Source: an uncultured Woeseiaceae bacterium
GTDB taxonomy: Bacteria > Pseudomonadota > Gammaproteobacteria > Steroidobacterales > Woeseiaceae
NCBI GenBank assembly: GCA_964605635.1
Contig: CAZSDL010000001.1
Location: 3,944 to 67,943, forward strand
Direction of reading: 5' to 3'
Length of the DNA: 64,000 bases
Shown here: in pieces, positions 8,691 through 54,881 of the stretch
How positions within the stretch are numbered: the first letter of the stretch is position 1
How the letters are laid out: the number at the start of each line of letters is the position of its first letter
Notes under the pieces: model-generated
Databases searched by the model: none
What the model was told of the DNA's origin: nothing
What the model saw: only the letters and a program-made list of their open reading frames with translations
Translations under genes and position numbers: made by a program

Positions 8691-11036
8691 TCAGGGCATG
8701 AGCGCGCGAAATGTGGCCGTCTGTGCCGAACCCAGCATCACCGGTGCTTCGATGAAATTGCCTTGCACGAAGTCGACGCCGGCTTCGCGCAACCAGTCGA
8801 AATCTTCCTGGCGCTCGACCTGTTCTGCAACAACGCGGAACTCAAGTGCCCGCGCGAGCTTGATCATGGCGGCCACCATCTCCTGGTTAATCGGCTCCGA
8901 ATCCAGGTTGCGCGTGTAGTTGCCATCGATCTTCAGGTAATCGACCGGCAAGTGCTTCAGGCTTGAGAACGCGCCCAGCCCGTTGCCAAAATCGTCAAGA
9001 GCGAAGTCGCAACCGATGCCGTGCAACACCTCGATGAAACGCTGTGCATACTTCACGTTGGTCGAAATCGCCGCTTCGGTTACTTCGAAGCAAATGCGGG
9101 ATGGCGCTACGCCGCTATGGTCCAGGGCTTCAACGACGAAATCGAGAAATCCTTCGTCGCCAAGTGTCTGTCCGGATACATTGACGGCACAACTGCGTTT
9201 GCCGGGCAACCTGATCTCGCCGGCACTGATCGCTGCGAGGGTCGCCGTCAGCACCCACCGATCGATCTGCGGCATCAACTGGTAACGCTCGGCGGACCGC
9301 AGGAAATCCGCGGAATTGTCGGATCGTCCATGTGCATCGGGCAATCGTATGAGCACCTCGATCGACGGTCCCGTTTCTGCCGGGCTGTTCAGGGCGATAA
9401 TCGGCTGGACTGCCAGTTCGAAACGATTTTCATGCAAGGCGGTCTGTAGCTGGCGAAGCCACTGGATATCGCCTCGCTCCCGTGCGATGGCTTCGTCGCG
9501 TGCAGAATAAACATGTACCTGGCTACGGCCGCGTTGCTTCGCAACGTAACAGGCGGAATCTGCCGCGCTCATCAGGTCCTGGATTGAACTGCTTGCATGT
9601 CCGACCTCGACCAGGCCTATCGAGATACCGATGCTGAAAATCTTGTCCTGCCAGACGAAGCGATAATCGCTGATCGCGTTGCAGATATCTGCTGCGATCT
9701 GTCGCGCCTTGTCGATAGGGCAACCGATCAGCAGTATGCCGAACTCATCTCCGCCCAGGCGACCGACGAAATCCGAATCACGCACCTGATCCCGGATCAG
9801 CGTAGCAACTTCACGCAGCATATTGTCGCCCGCAAGGTGGCCACAACTGTCGTTGACTGCCTTGAAGCGATCGAGGTCCATGTAGGAGAGAATATGCACG
9901 CTACCGTCGGCATGTGCTGAATCGAGGGCCTCCTGCAAACGTCGCTCGAACTCGCGTCGGTTGATCAGGCCGGTCAGCGCATCGTGAGACGCCTGGTAGC
10001 TCATCTGGCGAGTCAGGCCGCGAATCTCGCTGACATCGTGAAATACTACAACCGTGCCGGAAATAGTGTCGCCCGGCCCGCGGATCGGGGAAGCTGTAAT
10101 TTCTACGGAATGCTCGTGTTCGCCATCGCGACTTACCAGCAGCGCTCTCCGGCCCATATTGACGCGTCGACGCATGGACAGACAACGCTCCACCGGGTCG
10201 CCAAGGGGCCGCCTATCGACCTCATCGATTAGCGAGAACAGCTCACCGATCCTGTGGCGAATGCCTTCCTCCCGATTGGCGCCGGTCATCGCTTCGGCGG
10301 CGCGATTCATGTAATCGATGCGGCCTTCGTTGTCTGTCGTAATAACCCCTTCTGCGATCGATTCAAGTGTGTACTGCGCCTGCTGTCTGCTGCGACTTAG
10401 CGAGACCTCCAGGCTCTTGCGATAACTCACGTCGCGGGCGATGGTCAGGATCGCGTTACTACCGCGAAATTCAATCGACGAACTTTGCGCTTCGACCCAC
10501 AAGCCCTGTTCGTTGCCGTTTATTAGCTGGATTTCGAGGCGCCGTGGCGCTGTCTTTCCGGCGAGGCGTTTTGCCGTGGTCTTGCGGAACAATGCCCGGT
10601 AGGCCGGCTTGACGAGATCGACGACATCCCTGCCTTCCAGTTGGTCCGGGGTCAGGCCCAGCAGAGCCGCCGCACTGTCGTTCGCAAGCAGTATACGTTC
10701 ATCATGCAGGAGCACGATCTCCGGGAGGGTGCGCGCAAAATCAGCGAACAGGCGGTCGCGGTCCTGGATTTCTTCGTCGCGCTCTCCCAGCGCATCGAAA
10801 AGCCTGTTGATGGTCCGGGCCAGTGCTGCGATTTCTCCGTTTTCGCCAACGGAGAGTCGCCGCCCCACGTACGCATCGCCAGCAGCGGCGACCAGCTCGA
10901 GATTCAGCCGGGCCAGGCGCTGCAGATTGCGACGACGCTGCAGCCACAGTGCAGCCAGCGCGGCAGCAGCGAGCAGCAAAAGCACTGCAAGGATGGCAAC
11001 GGTCAGAAGCGACGACATGCCAGCCTTGATGTGCAC
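8691..11036 (-). CDS. membrane-anchored PAS/GGDEF/EAL cyclic-di-GMP signalling protein
   Basis: N-terminal TM helix (LLTVAILAVLLLLAAAALAALW), PAS-like segments, a GGDEF motif (RLGGDEFGILL) and an EAL domain (IEVLIRLP..., DDFGNGLGAFSSLKHLPVDYLKIDG). Confidence 0.9.
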   Translation of the reverse strand: MHIKAGMSSLLTVAILAVLLLLAAAALAALWLQRRRNLQRLARLNLELVAAAGDAYVGRRLSVGENGEIAALARTINRLFDALGERDEEIQDRDRLFADFARTLPEIVLLHDERILLANDSAAALLGLTPDQLEGRDVVDLVKPAYRALFRKTTAKRLAGKTAPRRLEIQLINGNEQGLWVEAQSSSIEFRGSNAILTIARDVSYRKSLEVSLSRSRQQAQYTLESIAEGVITTDNEGRIDYMNRAAEAMTGANREEGIRHRIGELFSLIDEVDRRPLGDPVERCLSMRRRVNMGRRALLVSRDGEHEHSVEITASPIRGPGDTISGTVVVFHDVSEIRGLTRQMSYQASHDALTGLINRREFERRLQEALDSAHADGSVHILSYMDLDRFKAVNDSCGHLAGDNMLREVATLIRDQVRDSDFVGRLGGDEFGILLIGCPIDKARQIAADICNAISDYRFVWQDKIFSIGISIGLVEVGHASSSIQDLMSAADSACYVAKQRGRSQVHVYSARDEAIARERGDIQWLRQLQTALHENRFELAVQPIIALNSPAETGPSIEVLIRLPDAHGRSDNSADFLRSAERYQLMPQIDRWVLTATLAAISAGEIRLPGKRSCAVNVSGQTLGDEGFLDFVVEALDHSGVAPSRICFEVTEAAISTNVKYAQRFIEVLHGIGCDFALDDFGNGLGAFSSLKHLPVDYLKIDGNYTRNLDSEPINQEMVAAMIKLARALEFRVVAEQVERQEDFDWLREAGVDFVQGNFIEAPVMLGSAQTATFRALMP

Positions 11037-20458: not shown

Positions 20459-20911
20459 ATGAATGTGACCCGATATGAGCCGTGGACGCTCCTGAACCTG
20501 TTGCACCGCGATCTGGACCAGATTGCCGGTCGGCGTCTTGGTATCGGACAGGAATCCGCTGACGGCAGCAACTCCGTTGCCGACTGGATTCCGCCGGTTG
20601 ACATCGTCGAGGAAAAAGATCGCTTCGTTTTGCGGGCCGACCTGCCAGGTGTGAATCCCGAGCAGATCGATATCAGCATGGAACACGGGGTTTTGAGCAT
20701 CGCCGGCGAGCGGCGTGAGGAACGCTCCGAACAGGTTGAAGGGATGCAGCGAGTGGAGCGGATTTCCGGCAAGTTTTACCGCCGGTTCAGTCTGCCGGAG
20801 ACAGCCGATGCGGAACACATTTCCGCAAAAAGCTCGAACGGCATTCTCGAAGTGACTATTCCGAAACAGGCCCAGGTGCAGGCACGACGAATTGCTGTGC
20901 AGGCAAGTTGA
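20459..20911 (+). CDS. small heat-shock protein (Hsp20/alpha-crystallin family)
   Basis: 150 aa with an alpha-crystallin domain: WIPPVDIVEEKDRFVLRADLPGV...GVLSIAGER...FYRRFSLPE...NGILEVTIPK. Confidence 0.9.
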   Translation: MNVTRYEPWTLLNLLHRDLDQIAGRRLGIGQESADGSNSVADWIPPVDIVEEKDRFVLRADLPGVNPEQIDISMEHGVLSIAGERREERSEQVEGMQRVERISGKFYRRFSLPETADAEHISAKSSNGILEVTIPKQAQVQARRIAVQAS

Positions 20912-21026
20912 CCGGCCCATTGGGAAGACATAGGCGACCATAAGGCGACGACAAGCAGTGGGGTGTCGCCCGGCAGCAACCGCTGCTGGTCGGGCGACAC
21001 CAGCAGCGCAAGTTGCAAAGAGTCCG

Positions 21027-37233: not shown

Positions 37234-37310
<77 letters not shown>

Positions 37311-43558: not shown

Positions 43559-44322
43559 TCTTCTACTTCCTCGTTGTCATCACGACTCGTGAACACCACG
43601 TAACTTTTGTACTCTGCCCTCAGGATAAATCGCCTTGTCGCGTAGATGCGAAGTCCTGCACCGACGTGGCCAACCTGGTCGGTTCGATCATCGCCCTGCA
43701 CTATCGTCGATTTCGGCCGGGTATGGATCACTCCGGTGCCGAGCGTGAAAAAAGGCGAAATGCGCCATTCGGGCCATGTTTCGTGGACGACGTTAACACT
43801 GCCCATCCAGCCATTCGAAAAATTTCCCAGAATCTGTGAACCCCATGCCTCGAAAGAGACGTTCGGGTTGAGTGAGTACCTGCCATAGACCGAAATGATG
43901 TTGGCGCCACCGAAGTCTCCGGCCATTACGCCGGCCTCCCAGCGTGACTCGAGGAGATCTTCCTGACCGGCTGCGGCGAACTCGACGCTTGCGCCATCGG
44001 GCTTCAGGGTGAGTTCGAGTTGTGCGCGATCAACCCAGCCTTCGGCGCTCCCGGCGTCGCGAACGAGGAACCAGTCGGTGCGCCGTTTCATAATCTCGAC
44101 GGTCTCACCGCGGTCGACTACATGGAACTTGGGATAGCCCCGACCGGGACCCGTATGCATTTCCAGATAGGGGTCCGCCACCGCAACAGTGAGATATCGA
44201 TCCGCGGCCCCGGCAGGTCCGGCTGCAAGCATCTGGCTCAGTACAATGAGCAAGAGTGCCAGTGCTGCCGAGTTAGTTATTCGGGACGTCGAATGGATTG
44301 TTGTAATACTGGGCACCGACAT
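43528..44322 (-). CDS. SH3-domain / outer-membrane beta-barrel fusion protein
   Basis: Signal peptide, then a bacterial SH3-like segment (MHTGPGRGYPKFHVVDRGETVEIMKRRTDWFLVRDAGSAEGWVDRAQL), then a barrel-like body ending WKVGFAFFF. The start is uncertain because ATG 44322 overlaps the upstream gene by 50 nt. Confidence 0.65.
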   Translation of the reverse strand: MSVPSITTIHSTSRITNSAALALLLIVLSQMLAAGPAGAADRYLTVAVADPYLEMHTGPGRGYPKFHVVDRGETVEIMKRRTDWFLVRDAGSAEGWVDRAQLELTLKPDGASVEFAAAGQEDLLESRWEAGVMAGDFGGANIISVYGRYSLNPNVSFEAWGSQILGNFSNGWMGSVNVVHETWPEWRISPFFTLGTGVIHTRPKSTIVQGDDRTDQVGHVGAGLRIYATRRFILRAEYKSYVVFTSRDDNEEVEEWKVGFAFFF

Positions 44323-46945
44323 CCAGCCATTCCGCGATCAGGCGTTTTTCCGCAGGCGTCAGATAGCCGTCATGGCTCTCGCCCGCATCGAAACGATTAA
44401 AAAATCGACCCGACGCGTTGGCGCCGGCGACACTCATTGAAGGGTTCACCGTAACGGTGGCAAAAATCGGATCTCCGGTTTCCGGATCGGTGCCAACCTG
44501 CACCAGGACGTCCTGTAACGCGCCCATGTTGAGTTCCTGTTCGTTATCCGGGAACAGCAGCTCACGATAAGAATTTAAGTGATCCGCCTGATCGGGCGAT
44601 TGCCCGTCGGACAAATCCAGCTGCGACGCCGGCACACGCACCTGCATCTGGTCGTCGACCGGGCTGTGGCAATTGACGCAGTCATTGGTAACGGGATTAC
44701 CCATCCCGTCGAGCACCGGATTCATGTCGTCGTCCAGCACCGGTCGCGATGCCGACCATAACGGATGAATATGTGTCTCGTAATTAATGACGATGCGACA
44801 AGTCGCGGACCATTGCTGCATGCAATTGACGTTGGTCGGCGGCGCGGTCGTCAGGGCAGAGTACGCGTACGCAAAGCTCTCATCCCTCGGCCGGCCCGCA
44901 GCAACCTCATCAGTCCATACGTCGTCGTAAATGATGTCGACAGACGGATCGAGCGACACGCAGGTCGTATCGGCGCAACTGATGCGTGCTCGAACTTCGG
45001 CCATCGTTTCACCGACCTCACCGACAAAAAGTGCCGGATCGGTGTTCGGGAATTCGACGCCAGCCATCGCGGCCCCGGCCCACGCTGGTTCGAACGCATC
45101 TCCACGGCCATGGGACAGGCCGCCTTGTGCCTCGTGACAACCGTTGCATTGCAACAGTTGTCCCGGCCGGACCTGTAACCAGTTCTGATGTCGCTGTGTT
45201 ATGCGACGGCCGTCGCTGTCGAGCACACTCACGGCCAGTGCGACGTTGGCCGGCACCTTGACTATGACCGAACCATCCGGTTCGATGGGCGCATAGCCGA
45301 CAATTTCCTTCATGCCCTGCTGAGTACTGCGACCGAACGCCGTATTGTCCAGATCGACGATGTCTTCATCGGGAATCGACACCGCTTTCACAATACGCAA
45401 AAACCTGGCCGGCCTCTCATCTGCCGTGGTCTGCGCCGGATCAGCCAGCGCCGCGATATTTGCCACAGCCCCGCCGTCGAAATCATAGACACTCCGGATA
45501 CTGATCACTCCCGTGCCTTCGGCGACCAGGTCAGGGTCGGCCAGGAAATTGTCGGCGCCATCGAGTATGACGGGAGGTATGGGCCTCGGGTCGGCAGACA
45601 CTACTTCCGTGAACATGAAGCCCTCTACGGGCGGCACAATCGGCAATTGAGTGTTATCCCTCGGATCGTAGATCCAGATGCCGTAGATCGGTGGCGATTC
45701 CTCGACCTGCGGATTGGCGAGTCGCTCGTCCGTGCAAGGCACGTTAAAGATGTCCTCGACGACGCGACACTGGCTCCAGCTCACCAGCATCCTGCCGGTA
45801 CCGTCCTGAATGGGGAAGACGGAGCGGTAGCGTCCTCCACGCGAAGGTACGCCGGCCTCCGTCGAAACGTCGTTGACCGTGGCAGCTTCCTGTGCCGGCC
45901 CGGTCAGGCCAGGGTTGTCCTTGTTGGCTTGCGCATTTTCCAGGTACACCGGTACATCGATGACGGTCAGGTCGCCGCCGTCGTTCGTATCAGTGTACGG
46001 ACGAGTAAGGGCCAGTACGCGTCCGTCCTCCAGTTCGCGCGGCTGCAGGAACTGGATTGTTTCGCCATTCGTACCGGTATCGTGGCTGTTCTGGCCATAG
46101 AGCAATTCGAGATTCGACCCGTCCGGGTTCATTCGATAGAGATTCACAGCATCATTAACGCCCATGTGATCCCAGCGGCTGAACACGATCCTGCCGTCCG
46201 CCAGGACAGACGGATCGAAGTCGTGGCTCTGGTTGTATGAGATTTGCTCGATGTTCGAGCCGTCCGCATCCATGACATGCAGGACGAATGCCGGTTCGTT
46301 CCGGTCCTCGTCCATGGCGGCGAACTGCGGCTTGCCTTCATCCAGCAGCACCGCACTCGAGCGCACCTGGCGGGTCGACGAAAAAACGATGCGGCCATCC
46401 GGCAGATAGTGGGGCGCAAGATCGTGCCCGATTTCAGCGGTCAGGTCCGAGGCAATGACGCGACGCAAGGTTTCTGTTTCGAATTCGTATTCCCAGATGT
46501 TCCAGGTCGGCTGGTCCTCGTCGTCGAGGTCGAGATTCTCGATAGCCGGGCCGCGCATGGCGAACAGGAGTTTGCTGCCATCATAGGCAATCTCGACATC
46601 CCTTACGTCGCCCAGTCCGTTCGTAACGCTTTCAGTTATATTGACATCCAGTGCGCTGGGAGACGCACGGTCACGAAAGAACAGATCGGCTCCGATATTG
46701 AATGTAATCAGTTCACGCAGGTCGGATTGTTCCGTCATGCCCAGGTCATCGACCGGCAATGGTGCCCTGATGTAAGCGATCGGAAAATCGATGACGACCG
46801 GGTCCGCATCCTGCCCCGTACCGATGCTGACGCCATCACCACTTCCATCGCAGCCGGCCAACCCAAGCAAAGCGGACAGCAACAGCGCGCCCTGCACTAC
46901 CGCGTTCCGTGATCCAGCACCATTGCGTTGCGACGCCGTGTTCAT
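44273..46945 (-). CDS. large lipoprotein: PD40/TolB-like beta-propeller plus C-terminal di-CXXCH domain
   Basis: Lipobox LLGLAGC follows ATG 46945 (RBS AAGGTGG). PD40-like repeats are present (LPDGRIVFSSTR, VMDADGSNIEQISYN, LADGRIVFSRWDH, YRMNPDGSNLELLYG). The two CXXCH motifs are CNGCH and CVNCH. Confidence 0.75.
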   Translation of the reverse strand: MNTASQRNGAGSRNAVVQGALLLSALLGLAGCDGSGDGVSIGTGQDADPVVIDFPIAYIRAPLPVDDLGMTEQSDLRELITFNIGADLFFRDRASPSALDVNITESVTNGLGDVRDVEIAYDGSKLLFAMRGPAIENLDLDDEDQPTWNIWEYEFETETLRRVIASDLTAEIGHDLAPHYLPDGRIVFSSTRQVRSSAVLLDEGKPQFAAMDEDRNEPAFVLHVMDADGSNIEQISYNQSHDFDPSVLADGRIVFSRWDHMGVNDAVNLYRMNPDGSNLELLYGQNSHDTGTNGETIQFLQPRELEDGRVLALTRPYTDTNDGGDLTVIDVPVYLENAQANKDNPGLTGPAQEAATVNDVSTEAGVPSRGGRYRSVFPIQDGTGRMLVSWSQCRVVEDIFNVPCTDERLANPQVEESPPIYGIWIYDPRDNTQLPIVPPVEGFMFTEVVSADPRPIPPVILDGADNFLADPDLVAEGTGVISIRSVYDFDGGAVANIAALADPAQTTADERPARFLRIVKAVSIPDEDIVDLDNTAFGRSTQQGMKEIVGYAPIEPDGSVIVKVPANVALAVSVLDSDGRRITQRHQNWLQVRPGQLLQCNGCHEAQGGLSHGRGDAFEPAWAGAAMAGVEFPNTDPALFVGEVGETMAEVRARISCADTTCVSLDPSVDIIYDDVWTDEVAAGRPRDESFAYAYSALTTAPPTNVNCMQQWSATCRIVINYETHIHPLWSASRPVLDDDMNPVLDGMGNPVTNDCVNCHSPVDDQMQVRVPASQLDLSDGQSPDQADHLNSYRELLFPDNEQELNMGALQDVLVQVGTDPETGDPIFATVTVNPSMSVAGANASGRFFNRFDAGESHDGYLTPAEKRLIAEWLDVGAQYYNNPFDVPNN

Positions 46946-47630
46946 AAATGCCACCTTTAATACCTGATGTAGTGATTGGTACGCGCGTTTCGCACCAACT
47001 TGCGTGCGTAGCTCTATGCAATATTCAGACCATTCCCTCTTCGTAGGAAACGATCGAACGCCGCAAAGTAAAATCGCTGTCAGGCGGACTGCCATAGTGG
47101 ACGCGAAGCACCCCCTGTACCGTTAACGCGATCACAAAGATCTGCGAGAACATCTCTTCAGAATCGGTGTTTTACGGATGCTGCGACTTCCTGATCTGTA
47201 GATCGGCAACGAGCCAAATTGCACTGCGAATTATTGCGAGCAACAAAACCCGTCAGAAGTCGTGGCCCGTGTCACTGTTGCCGAAATCGCACCAACTCGG
47301 TAGCTGCCGTGTTTCCTCTGTTGTTTTGCCGCGAATCCTTGTCGGTAACAGACACTGATGTCGGTCTGCGGCGACAGGCTGCCGGGCATTGTGAATCAGC
47401 GGCTTAGAATGTCGTTTGACTTTGTCTTGTGCGGAACGAACGACAATGGCTTGACATATCCTCGCGCGGGCCTGGTCTTCGAAAAATTCTGTAATCGCCT
47501 GTTTCCTAACACGTAAATGGCAGCCAATCGCGTAACGCCGCATTTTGGCACAGCCCTTGCTATGTATTTGTCAGTTAGACAAAGACGGTGCCAAGCGGGA
47601 GTTCGAGAAAGTGTCGGTAAACAGGTGGAG

Positions 47631-47646
47631 TGTGAATGCATTCACG
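47631..47646. promoter_or_regulatory. CRP/Vfr-type palindrome
   Basis: TGTGA-ATGCAT-TCACG compared with the consensus TGTGA-N6-TCACA. Its core, GTGAATGCATTCAC, is a perfect 14-bp palindrome. It lies in the 1-kb divergent gap, about 320 nt upstream of ATG 47969. Confidence 0.3.
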
Positions 47647-47744
47647 GCCTGGATGCGACAACTTAGGCATAGTCTTTTTTGGAACGTCCGCCTGCTCGTT
47701 CGGCAATTGGTGCGCCGGTAAGACTCGGCAAAACCCTAAGGACT

Positions 47745-47850
47745 TCTGAAAAGGGCAAGGCCTCTGCCAGCAGAACCGGCGGTGGCCACGCAAAGCAACC
47801 GATCCGGGAAGTAGCCTCACGGCTACGTCTACGCGACAGCGGGGCCGCCA
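47745..47850 (+). ncRNA. candidate GEMM-I-like (cyclic-dinucleotide) riboswitch aptamer in the operon leader
   Basis: In order: GGGCAAG (47753-59); a 9-bp hairpin GGCCTCTGCC/GGCGGTGGCC (47759-87); ACGCAAAGC (47788-96); the hairpin GTAGCC-TCAC-GGCTAC (47811-26); and GACAGCGGGGCCGCC (47835-49). These parallel GGGCAAA-hairpin-GACGCAAAGCC...GUAGCGGGGUUACC of the V. cholerae Vc2 aptamer as I remember it. This has not been verified with a covariance model. Confidence 0.25.
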
Positions 47851-47968
47851 GGAGTACGTGAGTGACAGGGCTTCTTCTCCCTGCTTCGCTCTTGAAATAA
47901 GCCGGACTCCCGTGCCTGTCAGCTGTAGCTCACGATGTTGAGTCGTACTGGTCACGAGCAGGGATGTT

Positions 47969-49183
47969 ATGAAAGACAGGACGTGGAAAGTTAGTTCAGG
48001 TGCCGGAAACCGCTCATTTGTTGCGCGGCTCGCACAAGTGTTTGCCGTTGGCTTTCTGTCTGCTGCGCTCGCATTGCCTGCCGCCGCGGGTCCGAGAGAG
48101 CAGGCAAAACGCATCCATGACCGACTTGCCGGCGTCCCGCCGTCAGCCTCGGTTCTTGACGCTATGGAAGCTGACGTCGACCCGTTTCAGCCAGGCACGG
48201 CCCTGGATGCCGCTTTCACGGCGATGGACAATCCCAATTTCTACAACGTGACCCTGAAGAACTTTGCAGCGCCGTGGACAAACCGCGAGCGCAGTGTGTT
48301 CGTTCCTCTGAACGATTACATCGCAACTGTTGTCGGCATGATTCGTGACGACGTGCCGTTCAACACCCTGCTTTCTGCCGATCTCGTCTACATCGGCAAT
48401 GGCAGCCTCGGCTTGCCGCCCTACTCCAGCAATAACAACAATCACTACGCGCAGATGGAGCAACGGCAGATCGACATGATGAGCGAACTCACACCGACGG
48501 CGCAGTCGACGGTAAGCGGCCTGCCTTCAAACGCGACGGCAGGCGTGATGACGACCCGCGCAGCCGCCGAGGCGTTCTTTGTCGCCGGCACCAACCGCGC
48601 GATGTTCCGCTTCACGTTGCTGAACCACATGTGTAATGACCTCGAGCAGGTCCACGACGTCAAGCTTTCGCCGGATCGTATTCGCCAGGATGTCGCCCGC
48701 AGCCCGGGGGGTGACAGTCGCCTGTTCCTGAATAATTGCATCGGCTGCCACAACGGTATGGATCCGCTGGCGCAGGCCTTCGCGTATTACAATTTCAACG
48801 TCGACACGGGCAGCATCGAGTACACGCCGGGCCAGGTGCAGCCCAAGTACTTCAACAATGAAGACAACTTTCCGTTCGGCTTTCGTACGCCGGATGACAG
48901 CTGGGACAACTACTGGCGTACCGGGCAGAACCAGTTTCTCGGCTGGGACAGCAGTCTGCCCGGCAGTGGTGCCGGTGCGAAATCGCTTGGCGACGAACTG
49001 GGCAACAGTGCCGCGTTCGCCAGCTGCCAGGTCCGCAAAGTCTTTCAAGCTGTTTGTCTGAGACCGCCGCAAGATGCCGCCGATCGGGCCCAGGTGGATC
49101 AGATGGTCATGTCCTTCACGTCCTCCGGCTATCTCATGAAGCAGGTGTTCGCTGAAACAGCCGTCTATTGCATGGGCGACTAG
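47969..49183 (+). CDS. secreted single-CXXCH protein, DUF1588/DUF1585 (PSCyt3/PSD2)-like
   Basis: Signal peptide FVARLAQVFAVGFLSAALALPAAAG. Contains NNCIGCHNGMDPLAQAF, which is CxxCH followed by xxMDP as in the planctomycete-type DUF1588 domain. The C-terminal region is GAKSLGDELGNSAAFASCQVRKVFQAVC. Confidence 0.7.
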   Translation: MKDRTWKVSSGAGNRSFVARLAQVFAVGFLSAALALPAAAGPREQAKRIHDRLAGVPPSASVLDAMEADVDPFQPGTALDAAFTAMDNPNFYNVTLKNFAAPWTNRERSVFVPLNDYIATVVGMIRDDVPFNTLLSADLVYIGNGSLGLPPYSSNNNNHYAQMEQRQIDMMSELTPTAQSTVSGLPSNATAGVMTTRAAAEAFFVAGTNRAMFRFTLLNHMCNDLEQVHDVKLSPDRIRQDVARSPGGDSRLFLNNCIGCHNGMDPLAQAFAYYNFNVDTGSIEYTPGQVQPKYFNNEDNFPFGFRTPDDSWDNYWRTGQNQFLGWDSSLPGSGAGAKSLGDELGNSAAFASCQVRKVFQAVCLRPPQDAADRAQVDQMVMSFTSSGYLMKQVFAETAVYCMGD

Positions 49184-49187
49184 GGAG

Positions 49188-51707
49188 ATGGCGTCGATGA
49201 ATCGTACAAAAGGAACTGTTATGGCCGACCTCATCGAGAGTGGTCGCAAAGGTGTCGTACGCGCAGGACTGGCGGGCGCATTGTGCATCGCGTTGCTCGC
49301 CGGTTGCGGCGGCGGCGCGCAGACGACGGACAACCCGATAACTGGCGTGACGCCTCCGTCAACCTATTCGGGGCCGCCGCCGGCAACCGAGGACGTGCAA
49401 TCCTTCAAATTGAACGTTTGGGACAACATCCAGGCCAGCAATCGTTGCGGCGGCTGCCACAATGACTCGATCGGTCAGACGCCGATGTTTGCGCGCCACG
49501 ATGACATCAATCTTGCTTACGAGGCCGCCAACACGGTAGCCAACCTGGCGCAGCCATCGGACTCCAGACTGGTTACGAAGGTCGCCACCGGCCATAACTG
49601 CTGGCTGAGCGACAGCCAGGCTTGCGCCGACATCATGACAACGTGGATAGAAGGCTGGGCCGGGGATGCAGCCGGCGGCGGACGCCAGATCGTGCTGGAG
49701 CCACCAGTTGCAAGCGCGCCGGGATCCAGCAAGAGCTATGCAAATGCCACGGAAGCCAATTTCGCGGCCCTGGTGCATGGCCCGGTCCTGACGACCTATT
49801 GCGCCGGATGCCATACCTCGCAGTCACCGAATTCTCAACAACCGTATTTTGCGGAAGACGATGTATCCGTCGCCTACGATGCGGCGAAACCGAGGATGTC
49901 CCTCGACTCACCGGCTGATTCGCGATTCGTGGTGCGCCTCGGTAGCGAGTTCCATAACTGCTGGAACGACAGCTGCACGGCCTCCGCTGCAGAAATGCAG
50001 GCGGCCATTCAGGCATTCGCCGACACGGTTCCGCTGACGGAAATCGATCCCTTGCTGGTCAACAGTAACGCGCTGCGCATTGTCGATGGCGTCGTTGCTT
50101 CCGGCGGCAATCGTTATGAAGGCGCACAGATTGCGTTGTGGGAATTCAAAACAGGCCAGGGCGCCACGGCGTTCGATACCAGCGGCGTGGAACCGGCAAT
50201 CAATCTCACGTTGTCGGGCAACTATGAATGGTTCGGCGGCTGGGGCGTTACCATCAACGACGGCAAGGCACAGGGCTCGACGTCCGCCAGCAAGAAGCTG
50301 CATGACCTCATTCGTGCAACCGGCGAGTACTCGATCGAAGCGTGGGTGGTACCGTCGAACGTATCGCAGGAAATGGCGCGCATCGTAAGCTATTCCGCCG
50401 GCGACGACGCACGCAACTTCACCTTGCAGCAGACCTTGTACGACTACAATTTCCTGCATCGCAGCACCGAGACGAGTCTCAACGGCGATCCCGCATTATC
50501 GACCCCGTCCGCTGCAGAGGTCCTGCAGGCCGTACTGCAACACGTGGTCGCAACTTACAGCCCCGTCGACGGACGCAGAATCTATGTCAATGGCGAGCTT
50601 GTCACGCAGGCCGACCCGGTAGCCGGTGGCTCTCTGGTCGACTGGCAGGACACATTTGCTTTCGTACTCGGCAACGAAGTCTCGAGTTCGGGCCTTTGGC
50701 AGGGCACCTTCCGCCTGGTTGCGATGCATAACCGCGTCCTGACCCCCGAGCAGATCGTGCAGAATTTCGATGTTGGTGTGGGTGAGAAGTTCTACCTGTT
50801 GTTCGGCATCGAAGACATTATCAACGTGCCGACCGCCTACATCCTTTTCGAGGTTGCGCAGTTCGACAGCTACGGCTACCTGTTTACGCAGCCGCACTTC
50901 ATAACGCTCGACGCTGCACAGCAGCCTGACGGTATAGCACTGCAGGGCTTGCGCATCGGCATCAATGGAGTGGAAGCGCCGGTGGGGCAGTCCTACGCCA
51001 ATATGGACCAGACCCTCAGCTATTCGCAATTCGGTGAACTCGGTCAGCCTCTTGCCGATATCGGTGCTGTTATACCGCTGGAGAAAGGTCCGCAGGACGA
51101 TGAGTTCTTCCTGACCTTTGACTTGCTGGGTCAGCAGACCTACGTACGCACCAACGATCCGCCGCTGGTCATCACCCCGTCCGATCTGCCACCGGCGTCC
51201 CGTTTCGGGGTAAGGACCTTCGACGAAATCAATGCCACCATGGCAGCAGTGACGACTGTGGATCCTACTCAGACAAACGTGGACATGACTTACCAGAGTC
51301 TGCGGCAGTCATTGCCGACCATTGAAAGCCCCGAGGCATTTCTCGCTTCGCACCAGGTCGCGATCGCGCAGCTCGCCATCGAATACTGCAATGCGCTGAT
51401 CGACGATTCAGCATTGGCAGCCGCATACTTTCCTGGCTTTGATTTCAACCAGTCAGCCGCTGCTGCTTTTGCCGGGACCAATCGCGACCTGTTGCTCGAG
51501 CCACTGATCGACAGAATGATGGGCTTTGGCATCCAGACACAACCGGACTACGCCGATGTGCGCAACGAACTCGGCTACGTCACATCCGACGGCACGCGGC
51601 CCGACAACCTGATCGATCGCCTGTTGAGCAGCGGCGCAGCGACGCGATCGATTTCCAAGGGCGTATGCGCAGCCGTTCTCGGCAGTGCCGTCACACTCGT
51701 ACAGTAG
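49188..51707 (+). CDS. lipoprotein with two tandem CXXCH...HNCW modules and a LamG-like domain
   Basis: Lipobox LLAGC. Module 1 is CGGCHND...GHNCWLSDSQAC and module 2 is CAGCHTS...FHNCWNDSC. The LamG-like core is EYSIEAWVVPSNVSQEMARIVSYS...RRIYVNGELV. The more likely start is ATG 49197, 9 nt after GGGAG. Confidence 0.75.
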   Translation: MASMNRTKGTVMADLIESGRKGVVRAGLAGALCIALLAGCGGGAQTTDNPITGVTPPSTYSGPPPATEDVQSFKLNVWDNIQASNRCGGCHNDSIGQTPMFARHDDINLAYEAANTVANLAQPSDSRLVTKVATGHNCWLSDSQACADIMTTWIEGWAGDAAGGGRQIVLEPPVASAPGSSKSYANATEANFAALVHGPVLTTYCAGCHTSQSPNSQQPYFAEDDVSVAYDAAKPRMSLDSPADSRFVVRLGSEFHNCWNDSCTASAAEMQAAIQAFADTVPLTEIDPLLVNSNALRIVDGVVASGGNRYEGAQIALWEFKTGQGATAFDTSGVEPAINLTLSGNYEWFGGWGVTINDGKAQGSTSASKKLHDLIRATGEYSIEAWVVPSNVSQEMARIVSYSAGDDARNFTLQQTLYDYNFLHRSTETSLNGDPALSTPSAAEVLQAVLQHVVATYSPVDGRRIYVNGELVTQADPVAGGSLVDWQDTFAFVLGNEVSSSGLWQGTFRLVAMHNRVLTPEQIVQNFDVGVGEKFYLLFGIEDIINVPTAYILFEVAQFDSYGYLFTQPHFITLDAAQQPDGIALQGLRIGINGVEAPVGQSYANMDQTLSYSQFGELGQPLADIGAVIPLEKGPQDDEFFLTFDLLGQQTYVRTNDPPLVITPSDLPPASRFGVRTFDEINATMAAVTTVDPTQTNVDMTYQSLRQSLPTIESPEAFLASHQVAIAQLAIEYCNALIDDSALAAAYFPGFDFNQSAAAAFAGTNRDLLLEPLIDRMMGFGIQTQPDYADVRNELGYVTSDGTRPDNLIDRLLSSGAATRSISKGVCAAVLGSAVTLVQ

Positions 51708-51739
51708 CTCGATCAAGCAAACGGAATGAGGCAAGAGAA

Positions 51740-53365
51740 ATGGCCAGGAAAAGCAAACGTGCCCGGTTCGACTCACCGCAACGCCACGGGGAACACCCGC
51801 GGCCGGTGACCCGGCGTCAATTCGTCGCTCAGGGCTTTCTGGGCGGCTCGGCGTTCCTGGCAGGCGGCGGCGTGATGAGCCTGTTCACGAACCCGCGCGA
51901 GGCATTTGCGGAGCTGTCAGGCGACTTGCGGCCCTTGCTCAGCAATCCGTGCAACGTGGCAACGGAAGGTGCAGGCAAGATCCCGTTTATCTGTTTCGAC
52001 CTGGCGGGCGGAGCCAGCATCGCCGCTTCCAATGTCCTGGTCGGCAAAGAGGGCGGCCAACTCGATTTCCTGAGCACCGCCGGCTACCAGAAACTGGGCT
52101 TGCCCGGCGACATGGTGCCGGGTCTCAATGACCCGATTTCCGGCCTCTCCTTCACCAATACCGATTTCGGGCTGGCGTTTCACTCCGACAGCGCCTTCCT
52201 GCGCGGTATACTTCGCAGCATGGCGCCGACTCGAGCGGCCAACCTCAACGGCGCCATTATCCCGGCACGTTCGGAGAATGACACCGGCAACAATCCACAC
52301 AATCCGCTGTATGGCATTGCGACCGCGGGTGCCGACGGTTCGATCATCACGTTGGCAGGCTCCGAGAATACGGATTCAGGCGGCAACTCGATGATTCCGT
52401 CGATGATGATGAACCCGGAATTGCGGCCAACCAAGGTGGACCAGCCGCGGGATGTGACCGGCCTGGTAGATACCGGCGACCTGGTGGGCATTCTTCAGCC
52501 CGAAGAAGCGACCGCGGTCCTGGAATCCATTTACCGCATCAGCGACCGCAAGATGAGCGTTGCCGAAGCCGGCCAGACGATAAGCTCCGCGGAGGTCGTC
52601 AAGGACATGGTGCGCTGCGGCTACCTGAAATCGGCCGACATTGCCGACCGTTTCGGCGGCGTCCCGCTCGACCCCAGTGAGGACCCGATGATTGTCGGTC
52701 CGGGCGGCATATTTACTGAAGCCGAATTCAATGCCAACGATACCGATGGTCGCGAATTCCGCAAGACGGCATCTGTCATGAAACTGGTGATGAACGGTTT
52801 CGCCGGTGCCGCCTGCATCGAAATGGGCGGCTATGACTACCATGGCGGCCAGCGACGCGAAGGCGAAGTCAAGGACGAGCGCGCCGGGCGCTGCATGGGC
52901 GCTTGCCTGGAGTACGCGGCTCGCATCGGTGTACCCCTGATGCTGTACGTCTTCAGCGATGGTTCGCTGTCCAGCAACGGTGTCATCGACAACTCGCCGG
53001 AGGGTCGCGGCAAAGGTGAATGGGTCAGTGACGATTCGTCGACGGCAGCGTCATTTTTCCTGGTCTACAATCCCAACGGTCGGCCGGCGCTGCGCGGCGG
53101 GACGCCCGAGCAGCAAGCGAGGCACCAGCAGATCGGCTACTTCGACGCCAGCGGCTCGGTACAGCGCGCGTCAACGCCTGCGGCGAACAACGTCAACCTG
53201 CTCGTCAACACGGTGATTCTCAACTATATGGCGCTGCACGGTGAAGAAGGGAACTTCGCCAATCTCTTTCCGAACCACGGGCTCGGCGACACCAGTCTTC
53301 GCGACAGCATGACCGCATTCGATGCCATAGTCTCGGGCACGATCGGACCGCTGAATCCGTCGTAA
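51740..53365 (+). CDS. twin-arginine-signal protein, divergent DUF1501-like (sulfatase/phosphatase-superfamily-like)
   Basis: Tat motif TRRQFVAQGFLGGSAFLAGGG. FICFDLAGGASIAASNV and EMGGYDYHGG...LYVFSDG...GKGEWVSDDS loosely parallel the DUF1501 blocks (GG.D, GG.DTH, SEFGR, DHG). Confidence 0.65.
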   Translation: MARKSKRARFDSPQRHGEHPRPVTRRQFVAQGFLGGSAFLAGGGVMSLFTNPREAFAELSGDLRPLLSNPCNVATEGAGKIPFICFDLAGGASIAASNVLVGKEGGQLDFLSTAGYQKLGLPGDMVPGLNDPISGLSFTNTDFGLAFHSDSAFLRGILRSMAPTRAANLNGAIIPARSENDTGNNPHNPLYGIATAGADGSIITLAGSENTDSGGNSMIPSMMMNPELRPTKVDQPRDVTGLVDTGDLVGILQPEEATAVLESIYRISDRKMSVAEAGQTISSAEVVKDMVRCGYLKSADIADRFGGVPLDPSEDPMIVGPGGIFTEAEFNANDTDGREFRKTASVMKLVMNGFAGAACIEMGGYDYHGGQRREGEVKDERAGRCMGACLEYAARIGVPLMLYVFSDGSLSSNGVIDNSPEGRGKGEWVSDDSSTAASFFLVYNPNGRPALRGGTPEQQARHQQIGYFDASGSVQRASTPAANNVNLLVNTVILNYMALHGEEGNFANLFPNHGLGDTSLRDSMTAFDAIVSGTIGPLNPS

Positions 53366-53387
53366 ACGCTGTTGAGCATAAGAAGCG

Positions 53388-53426
53388 GCGGCCGGCCGGA
53401 CCAGCGTCCCGCCGGCCGCTTTTTTT
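53388..53426 (+). terminator. strong intrinsic terminator closing the 47969-53365 operon
   Basis: 9-bp GC stem GCGGCCGGC/GCCGGCCGC (53388-96 / 53411-19), 14-nt loop, then T7 (53420-26). Confidence 0.75.
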
Positions 53427-53450
53427 GCAGGCGGAGCCTGTCGCGCCATA

Positions 53451-54881
53451 ATGCGCTCACTTTCACCCGGGAAGATCTCCACCATGCCGGATACCGCTCC
53501 GCTACTCGATATCTTCGCCTGTCCACGTTGCGACAAAGCGCCGCTCGAGCAGCTTGCCAATGCCCTGCATTGCGCCGGCTGCAAGACCGAATTTCCCACC
53601 GTCGGCGGCATCCCCTGCTTGTTCGCCGACCCGGCGTCGAGTCTTGGCGAATGGCGCAACCGCCTGCACTTCGAATTGCAACGCCTCGCACACGATAGCG
53701 AACGACTGCGTACCGAATTGCGCGCAGCGGACCTGCGTGCGTTGACCCGACGACGGCTGGAAAGTCTTCTCGCCGCAACCGATAGCCACCGCAAGTCCTT
53801 GCAGCAGCTTCTTGTGCCGCTCGATGTACAGTCGATGCAAGCTTCCTACGAGTCGCATCTCGCGCTACGTACACGCTTACCGATCGACCAGGCCCTGGGC
53901 ACCTACTACGCCAATGTGCACCGGGACTGGGCCTGGGGCGACGAGGAGAACGCGGCCTCACTGCAGCAGGTTAGTCTCGCGCTCGCCGCATCCGCACAAA
54001 CCGGCATTTCAGCCGACGATATCGGGAACACGTTGGTCCTGGGATCCGGTGCATCACGACTGGCGTACGACATGCACATGGCATTCAATCCGCCACGCAC
54101 AGTTGCGGTCGACTTCAACCCCTTGCTGTTACTGATCGCCCAATCGGCCGTTAGCGGTACACCGCTTGATCTTTATGAATTTCCGCTGGCTCCAAAGTCC
54201 ATAGACGACGTCGCGGTGCTGCGGACGTTGCGGGCGCCGGAGCCCGTGCGGGCCGGACTATCGTTTGTGCTCGCTGACGTCTTGCGGGCACCATTCTGTA
54301 ATGGTTCTTTCGATACGGTTGTTACCCCGTGGCTGATCGATATTGTCGGCGAGGACCTGCCGATACTCGCTGCACGCATCAATCGCCTCCTGAAGAAAGG
54401 CGGTCGCTGGGTGAATTTTGGCTCGCTGGCTTTCGACCATCCGCAGCATTCACGCTGCTACAGTGCGCAGGAAATCATTGACATTGTCGAGACCTGTGGC
54501 TTCCGCACGCCTGAGATTCAGGAAGCGATCATTCCCTACATGTGCTCGCCCGCAAGTCGCCATGGCCGGCGCGAACTGAGTTTTACTTTCGCCGCTGTAA
54601 AGTCGGAAGATGCAAGCATACCGCCGCGGAACAAGGCGTTGCCAGACTGGATCGTTACCGGTCGCGAGCCGGTGCCTTTGTTGCCCTCGTTCCGGACACA
54701 GGCGCTTTCGACGCAAATTTATTCTTTTATCATGTCGTTGATCGATGGCCGGCGATCAATCGCCGACATGGCGGCCACTCTCGAAGAACGCAAACTGATG
54801 ACGCGACAGGAGGCGGAGCCTGCCATTCGCAACTTTTTGACACGCATGTACGACGACAGCCAACGACGGCGGGAATTCTGA
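53451..54881 (+). CDS. three-domain protein: Trm112-like zinc ribbon, N2227-like class I methyltransferase, PqqD-like C-terminal domain
   Basis: The zinc ribbon is LLDIFACPRCDKAPL...LHCAGCKTEFPTVGGIPCLFAD. The methyltransferase blocks are LVLGSGASRLAYDM...VAVDFNPLLLLIAQ and FDTVVTPWLIDIVGEDLPILAARINRLLKKGGRWVNFGSLAFDH. The tail is IYSFIMSLIDGRRSIADMAATLEERKLMTRQEAEPAIRNFLTRM. The start is ATG 53451 or 53484. Confidence 0.75.
   Translation: MRSLSPGKISTMPDTAPLLDIFACPRCDKAPLEQLANALHCAGCKTEFPTVGGIPCLFADPASSLGEWRNRLHFELQRLAHDSERLRTELRAADLRALTRRRLESLLAATDSHRKSLQQLLVPLDVQSMQASYESHLALRTRLPIDQALGTYYANVHRDWAWGDEENAASLQQVSLALAASAQTGISADDIGNTLVLGSGASRLAYDMHMAFNPPRTVAVDFNPLLLLIAQSAVSGTPLDLYEFPLAPKSIDDVAVLRTLRAPEPVRAGLSFVLADVLRAPFCNGSFDTVVTPWLIDIVGEDLPILAARINRLLKKGGRWVNFGSLAFDHPQHSRCYSAQEIIDIVETCGFRTPEIQEAIIPYMCSPASRHGRRELSFTFAAVKSEDASIPPRNKALPDWIVTGREPVPLLPSFRTQALSTQIYSFIMSLIDGRRSIADMAATLEERKLMTRQEAEPAIRNFLTRMYDDSQRRREF

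Follow-up and report, generated by a model that had tools for sequence, protein, structure and literature searches.

A predicted divergent GEMM-I riboswitch in the leader of an exported CXXCH-protein operon of a Woeseiaceae bacterium

Riboswitches of the c-di-GMP-I class (GEMM-I; RF01051, with Vc2 of Vibrio cholerae) are built on a three-helix junction in which P1 closes P2 and P3, carry the blocks AAA-G-GCAA, ACGCAAAGC, and AGCGGGG-Y-N-CC, and lie in the 5′ leaders of genes for exported or envelope proteins. In Vc2, the ligand cyclic di-GMP (c-di-GMP) is contacted by G20, A47, and C92, with G20 as the Hoogsteen partner of one ligand guanine and C92 as the Watson-Crick partner of the other (PMC4744006, PMC5888326), and the Watson-Crick pair between helices, C44-G83, is universally conserved (PMC4744006). 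Each of these features is shared by an element from an uncultured Woeseiaceae bacterium (GenBank assembly GCA_964605635.1, contig CAZSDL010000001.1). It lies on the plus strand at positions 47742-47855 of the 64,000-nucleotide stretch of DNA that was analyzed (the window, to whose positions coordinates refer unless another locus is named; aptamer residues follow Vc2 numbering), 114 to 227 nt upstream of the start codon ATG 47969 of an operon that includes genes for CXXCH (heme-motif) proteins. Comparison with leaders at orthologous positions indicates that it is almost certainly a GEMM-I homologue (clan CL00126) in a divergent copy, and this copy probably still works as a c-di-GMP sensor. It adds a divergent member to a riboswitch class that is already known in depth rather than representing a novel type of element, and it leaves knowledge of the class itself unchanged.

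The sequence-only reading had placed a GEMM-I-like cyclic-dinucleotide riboswitch at 47745-47850, and the sequence elements that it listed were each found in place, among them AAAAGGGCAAG (47749-47759), CACGCAAAGC (47787-47796), GACAGCGGGGCCGCC (47835-49), and the second hairpin GTAGCC-TCAC-GGCTAC (47811-26). It had recognized no convincing closing P1 helix; a P1 of 7 bp is present (Table 1), and once it is added the element extends slightly past the flagged span. A cmscan search of 47500-48000 gave a full-length match (model 1-80) to RF03167, c-di-GMP-I-GGC, at 47745-47853, which scores 30.0 bits (gathering score, 59) and has an E value of 3.7e-5, or ∼5e-3 after scaling to all 64 kb of the window. 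Its E value and full length indicate a resemblance that exceeds chance. The score is lost at three places, namely a 14-nt insertion at the position of the model's GNRA tetraloop, an insertion of ∼30 nt at the P3 tip, and a few noncanonical P3 pairs. In a gathering-level Rfam scan of the whole window, the sole match was a tRNA at 37234-37307 (+; 74.4 bits).

The assignment of the window copy to GEMM-I rests on its homology to aptamers at orthologous positions that pass the Rfam thresholds. Orthologues of the downstream open reading frame (ORF; 47969-49183) were found in 80 species-representative genomes, mostly Woeseiaceae, and the closest two (L001 and L002, from Woeseia/Woeseiaceae metagenome-assembled genomes) have 93% and 92% protein identity. 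Among the first 20 loci examined, 11 have gathering-level matches to the c-di-GMP-I clan, 200 to 300 nt upstream of the orthologous start codon. Eight of these leaders, one of them from Lentisalinibacter orientalis, pass RF03167 (60.4 to 66.7 bits versus 59), and all eight carry the textbook GGCAAACCCGUCGAAAGGCGGGGACGCAAAGC first hairpin; three others (L011, L016, and L053) pass RF01051 (40.8 to 43.3 bits versus its gathering score, 35). The window copy aligns with the gathering-level leaders block for block, and the three single-stranded blocks are kept in the orthologous leaders. A missing above-threshold covariance-model match had been named beforehand as a reason to drop the riboswitch; it is indeed missing in the window (30 versus 59 bits), but the orthologous leaders provide it. 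A covariance model built from 16 orthologous leaders (R1) recovers the element in exactly those 16 among 81 sources, with everything else at ≤14 bits. A weak R1 match at 20864-20973 (12.6 bits, E = 0.5) was rejected as a second window copy, and the E-value mode of the Rfam search found nothing there.

Covariation was assessed in an alignment (A4) of 37 sequences with 31 distinct rows, which comprises the 16 orthologous leaders and 21 usable relatives among the matches listed by a metagenomic pattern scan. At least eight of the scan loci share the operon context, seven of them in the alignment, and the remainder come from other contexts. On the GEMM-I structure, 91.5% of the cells are paired, compared with 79.9% in shuffles and 25 to 47% when partners are slid by 1 to 3 columns; double-sided changes occur at 14 of the 25 pairs, and the covariation score is 0.332 versus 0.140. 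None of 500 shuffles was as good on every measure. Compensatory double-sided changes support 6 of the 7 P1 pairs, all six modeled stem pairs of P2 covary, and P3, which is paired in 90% of its cells, is mostly invariant. Because the alignment was fitted to the model, its counts lean toward the GEMM-I structure; a plain MAFFT alignment gives the same covariation picture. RNAalifold recovers P1 and P2 unaided and misses P3, a helix with bulges and some noncanonical pairs across the family. The minimum free energy (MFE) fold of the isolated aptamer (−44.9 kcal/mol) likewise reproduces P1 and P2, and the full consensus fold lies within 1.2 kcal/mol of it. The block ACGCAAAGC is invariant in the alignment except in L003 and L008, which have ACGGCAAAGC, and CCAGGAG at the P1 3′ strand is near-invariant in the Woeseiaceae lineage. 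The alternative that a GC-rich intergenic sequence resembles GEMM-I by chance and contains no RNA element at all would fit the lack of a gathering-level match and a leader that folds no better than shuffles, but it is refuted by the covarying helices and by a position orthologous to 11 gathering-level matches; with the full-length match at E = 3.7e-5 and the selective constraint described below, its probability is negligible. The orthologous matches and the covariation thus support the riboswitch that had been proposed for the leader of this operon.

Table 1. Features of the predicted riboswitch, its leader, and the downstream operon (window coordinates; MFE, minimum free energy)
Feature	Coordinates	Strand	Basis or detail
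Promoter region	47546..47673	+	Consensus-based inference; sequence and spacing kept in 48 of 80 orthologous loci
5′ leader hairpin GAACG-UCCGCCUGCU-CGUUC	47682..47701	+	duplexfold and full-leader ensembles
P1 5′ strand ACUUCUG	47742..47748	+	7 bp with 47849-55
J1/2 AAAAGG	47749..47754	+	Alignment to RF03167 and 37-sequence alignment
P2	47755..47791	+	Basal pairs GC 47755-56 / GC 47790-91, then stem and loop
J2/3 AA	47792..47793	+	Alignment
P3	47794..47846	+	Rfam consensus structure
J3/1 GC	47847..47848	+	C 47848 invariant in 37-sequence alignment
P1 3′ strand CAGGAGU	47849..47855	+	Pairs with 47742-48
Hairpin GAGUGACAGGG-CUUCUUCU-CCCUGCUUCGCUC	47860..47891	+	In all constrained and free MFE folds
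Shine-Dalgarno region CGAGCAGGGA (47955-64) and start codon ATG 47969	47955..47971	+	Orthologue conservation
Four-gene operon	47969..54881	+	Intergenic gaps of 4, −43, and 85 nt
Gene 1, 404-aa exported protein	47969-49183	+	Signal peptide, 1 CXXCH, weak PSD2/DUF1585 match
Gene 2, 839-aa lipoprotein-like protein	within 47969-54881	+	LamG domain, 2 CXXCH
Gene 3, 566-aa protein	within 47969-54881	+	Twin-arginine motif, no family match
Gene 4, 476-aa protein	within 47969-54881	+	Methyltransferase and PqqD-like domains

Alignment with the Rfam model and the orthologues places the nucleotides that define the binding pocket. G 47754 corresponds to G20, A 47792 to A47, and C 47848 to C92, while C 47789, part of a CACGC motif, and G 47839, from the AG bulge of P3, correspond to C44 and G83. 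The C44/G83 equivalents are kept throughout the alignment except in L003, and the G20 equivalent is G in 35 of the 37 sequences. The combination of G20, A47, and C92 with the C44-G83 pair predicts c-di-GMP, rather than 3′3′-cyclic GMP-AMP (cGAMP), as the ligand.

The 3′3′-cGAMP switches of Geobacter (GEMM-Ib) share the GEMM-I scaffold and associate with c-type-cytochrome-like or extracellular proteins and exoelectrogenesis. They had been cited as a parallel for this locus, and the parallel fails at position 20, which is G in the window and A in the cGAMP signature and so argues against a cGAMP-type variant; the host of the window copy is, moreover, a gammaproteobacterium. An altered specificity, for 3′3′-cGAMP or for the ligand of the c-di-GMP-I-GGC variants, would suit the CXXCH-protein context, which resembles that of the cGAMP switches, as well as the unusual peripheral architecture and the fact that RF03167 instead of RF01051 is the best Rfam model. 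We regard it as very unlikely, since position 20 is G and not A, position 47 is A and not G, position 92 is C, and the preference for RF03167 is explained by lineage similarity. A20 does occur in two metagenomic GEMM-I matches from an unrelated context, L112 245-351 (−) and L141 5029-5135 (+), whose sequence CUU-A-GCAAGCC is the cGAMP-selective GEMM-Ib signature.

The c-di-GMP-I-GGC variant is said to have been defined by Weinberg et al. in PNAS in 2017, and we take the "GGC" of its name to denote positions 20/47/92, in agreement with the consensus line of the model. That consensus, ACGC-G-AAGC, has G at the A47 position, whereas the window copy and all Woeseiaceae leaders read ACGC-A-AAGC. 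Judged by this canonical G-A-C triad, the RF03167 label is misleading for the window and the Woeseiaceae leaders; RF03167 outscores the other models through overall lineage similarity, and even the canonical GAAA-tetraloop relatives above its threshold carry A47. The eight leaders that pass RF03167 (L018, L028, L029, L032, L035, L036, L042, and L058) score higher on RF03167 than on RF01051, all with A47, and automatic annotation would mislabel them. Annotation at the Rfam thresholds overlooks the riboswitch in the Woeseia clade and would label the canonical Woeseiaceae copies "GGC."

Outside the pocket, the window copy departs from RF01051. The P2 stem, GGCCTCTGCC (47759-68) with GGCGGTGGCC (47778-87), has 10 positions, with nine pairs (eight Watson-Crick and one G·U) and one U·U mismatch, and is capped by a 9-nt loop, AGCAGAACC (47769-77), which has no GNRA sequence, as the sequence-only reading had noted. 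In P3, a proximal helix joins 47794-47804 to 47835-37 and 47840-46 around the AG bulge (47838-39), and a distal extension of ∼30 nt (47805-34) contains the hairpin 47811-26. The A·G at 47797/47843 in the window is often noncanonical across the family. The L018-type sister clade has a GAAA loop on P2. In L002, 12 nt of the P1 5′ strand are duplicated in tandem (2750-2790 of that locus; GGACTTCTGAGAAGGACTTCTGAAAAGGGC), which provides two alternative P1 5′ strands.

Several of these properties, together with the behavior of the leader in folding models, weigh against a working GEMM-I sensor in the window. The copy has no gathering-level match to any Rfam model, its 30 bits being half the RF03167 threshold, and it has neither the GNRA tetraloop nor a recognizable receptor in P3. 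Type I and type II c-di-GMP-I aptamers have been defined, with type I characterized by a GNRA tetraloop docking in a P3 receptor (PMC11218506); the window copy shares the absence of the receptor with type II, but type II usually has a GYRA tetraloop in place of a 9-nt loop. An A·C in P3 (47794/47846) abuts the binding pocket and is restricted to the window clade, the pair being A-U in 28 of 28 distinct sequences outside it, and a second A·C lies at 47802/47837, where L002 has A-U and the others have G-C or G·U. The unconstrained MFE of the full leader (−86.0 kcal/mol) breaks the aptamer, compared with −82.1 kcal/mol when it is enforced. Shuffles fold about as well as the leader (z = 0.52), so that the high self-complementarity ascribed earlier to its downstream part does not stand out, although that part is under purifying selection. 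In equilibrium models of short and full leaders, run with and without the aptamer enforced, the accessibility of the window's Shine-Dalgarno region is 0.10 whether or not the aptamer is formed, and the region is paired to a tract near the 5′ end both ways. A scheme in which the P1 3′ strand (CAGGAG) mimics the Shine-Dalgarno sequence and competes with it for one anti-Shine-Dalgarno tract was rejected as a general mechanism, the overlap being negative or inconsistent across clades when compared with shuffles.

These points could indicate a decayed aptamer, a GEMM-I descendant that binds no ligand in the Woeseia clade and whose leader was kept for another role, such as constitutive sequestration or release of the Shine-Dalgarno region, mRNA stability, or protein binding. 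Such decay would account for the subthreshold Rfam score, the lost tetraloop/receptor contact, the two A·C oppositions, and a Shine-Dalgarno pairing that is independent of the aptamer in the models, and related loci show remodeling or absence of the element (see below). All five pocket and interhelix nucleotides are nevertheless intact, and the pattern of substitution speaks against it. In a comparison of the window with L001 and L002, with the 4-fold degenerate sites of the adjacent gene as a neutral proxy, identity is 88 to 92% in the aptamer and 90 to 95% in the downstream leader versus 66 to 73% at the degenerate sites. Varying positions number 3 of 55 in the junction core and 14 of 59 in the periphery (Fisher P = 0.008), and the peripheral substitutions affect both stem and loop of P2 as well as distal P3. 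The changes in P2 keep its pairing, among them one in L001, where a C-G pair has become U-A through compensatory substitutions on both sides. The aptamer is under purifying selection focused on the junction core, and substitutions that avoid the core and preserve P2 are the pattern expected of a working aptamer rather than of a generic hairpin. On this balance, we consider decay unlikely and a functional c-di-GMP sensor the probable reading.

The riboswitch is absent from 64 of the 80 orthologous loci, which have short leaders with the same promoter elements and Shine-Dalgarno region. Since those loci keep both elements, the riboswitch in this gene family is, as judged from the leaders compared, an insert of ∼200 nt found in roughly a fifth of the lineages. 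Among the leaders that have it, two are more derived than the window copy (L003 2739-2859 and L008 2728-2855): the GGGCAA block has become GCCGGCGAA or GGUCGGCGAA, P2 is remodeled, and L003 also has no G83 equivalent. These two elements are probably decaying or repurposed aptamers, and their changes indicate that this leader family does undergo decay, a point in favor of the decay hypothesis, as is the absence of the riboswitch from most orthologous loci. The riboswitch leaders form a graded series from a GAAA tetraloop through no tetraloop to a remodeled P2, and this compact natural series could show to what extent a GEMM-I aptamer can dispense with its peripheral structure.

How ligand binding might be coupled to expression was approached through the pairing potential of the leader. 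No terminator-like site was found in 47100-48100. The Bc1 riboswitch of Bacillus thuringiensis shares the long stretch (>110 nt) between aptamer and start codon but has two intrinsic terminators, whereas the window leader has none. The absence of an intrinsic terminator favors translational control, and the models suggest two anti-Shine-Dalgarno partners for it. The first, CCUGCUCG at 47691-98, lies in the 5′ leader hairpin and is the exact complement of CGAGCAGG in the Shine-Dalgarno region, with −21.2 kcal/mol together with AACGUCC/GGACGU in duplexfold; it is the predicted dominant partner in the full-leader ensembles. The second is the pyrimidine tract UCCCUGCUU (47878-86) inside the hairpin at 47860-91, with a duplexfold energy of −17.0 kcal/mol against the Shine-Dalgarno region; the stem of this hairpin is conserved, and the L001 and L002 substitutions fall in its loop. 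The sequence GAGCAGG-N-ATG is kept throughout the orthologous loci, whether they have the riboswitch or not. We regard translational control by an exchange of these anti-Shine-Dalgarno partners as the most likely mechanism, at about even odds. If the mechanism is translational, the balance tips slightly toward an OFF switch, given the canonical sister clade: with the aptamer enforced, predicted Shine-Dalgarno accessibility falls in 5 of 6 of its leaders, which suggests such a switch there. Rho-dependent termination on the C-rich, G-poor tract 47871-47894 is possibly an alternative. It had also been proposed that 47841-49 could pair with the 3′ arm of P2 (47778-87); a helix of 6 bp (GGCGGU/GCCGCC) does form in the unconstrained MFE, but it is not kept in L001 and L002, where the substitutions in the P2 3′ arm are compensated within P2 and not in 47841-49.

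Other long-range pairings were seen in related leaders. L018-type leaders contain, downstream of the aptamer, a sequence (CCUGGCAG) that is perfectly complementary to its 3′ end, CUGCCAGG (approximately −18 kcal/mol), and 1 to 3 of 200 shuffles were as good. Every long-leader locus has (A)GUCCGYCUG as a conserved 5′ leader motif, next to which the window clade carries the Shine-Dalgarno-complementary CCUGCUCG. In sister clades (L011, L016, L003, and L008), the motif pairs with CAGRCGGRC directly 3′ of P1 over 8 to 13 bp (−17 to −22 kcal/mol), forming an outer helix that encloses the aptamer and shows C/U-G/A covariation between clades. In three further loci (L015, L021, and L044), the motif again has a complement close by, but no GEMM is recognizable.

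We hypothesize that c-di-GMP, supplied by enzymes like the PAS-GGDEF-EAL protein encoded in the same window at 8691-11036 (−), a c-di-GMP enzyme gene that had been recognized before and is confirmed here, would bind the aptamer and lock P1. The locked P1 would then change the leader partner of the Shine-Dalgarno region, the candidates being the 5′ tract 47691-98 and the tract 47878-86, which is otherwise held in its hairpin. The output would most likely be translational, with secondary effects through Rho or mRNA decay possible. A bolder version, in which the sensor has been retuned in affinity, kinetics, or even ligand within a multi-input switch that combines a tandem promoter with the long-range 5′ anti-Shine-Dalgarno helix, seems to us quite unlikely; if true, such a switch would control an uncharacterized exported CXXCH family beside a hydrazine-synthase-alpha-like gene in a bacterial group that is among the most abundant in marine sediments.

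The four genes of the operon (Table 1) gave weak or no assignments when their proteins were compared with Pfam, NCBIfam, and PDB sequences. Upstream and divergent lies an ORF of 940 aa (44273-47095, −) that combines two CXXCH motifs and PD40 beta-propeller repeats with a hydrazine-synthase-alpha middle domain (PF18582, E = 6e-16), and it stays beside the operon in metagenomic relatives. Our literature search found no paper linking Woeseia to riboswitches. The predicted riboswitch would subject an operon for exported CXXCH, LamG, and twin-arginine-signal proteins to control by a second messenger, in a family of very high abundance in marine sediments, and the c-di-GMP level could then serve as a handle for studying these genes.

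The region upstream of the leader contains a putative tandem promoter, composed of a sigma-54-type element and a CRP/Clp-type site. The former is a perfect −24/−12 element, TGGCACagcccTTGCT (47546-61), ∼420 nt upstream of ATG 47969, with a predicted transcription start at ∼47573; no gene for an enhancer-binding protein was seen between 37 and 64 kb. A weak Rfam match to "narK RNA" (RF03032, E = 0.012) at 47547-47591 covers this element. The latter lies in TGTGAATGCATTCACG (within 47631-47673) and fits the CRP/Clp-type consensus TGTGA-N6-TCAC at 47631-46. A −10-like (TG)G-CATAGT (CATAGT at 47668-73) follows at a fixed spacing that centers the site at −41.5, the geometry of a class II activator, with a start at ∼47680. 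An RNA hairpin was considered for the palindrome at 47631-46 and rejected in favor of a DNA site, because invariance is confined to TGTGA/TCAC, no covariation links the variable inner bases, and the −10 follows at a constant distance. If the regulator of this site were Clp-like, it could, speculatively, be a second c-di-GMP input. Approximately 90 nt upstream of the sigma-54-type element, the block ACGACAAtgGCTTGACATAT (47440-47459, +; consensus GCAACGACAAGCGCTTGACATAT) is conserved in many orthologous loci and may be an activator site or another promoter.

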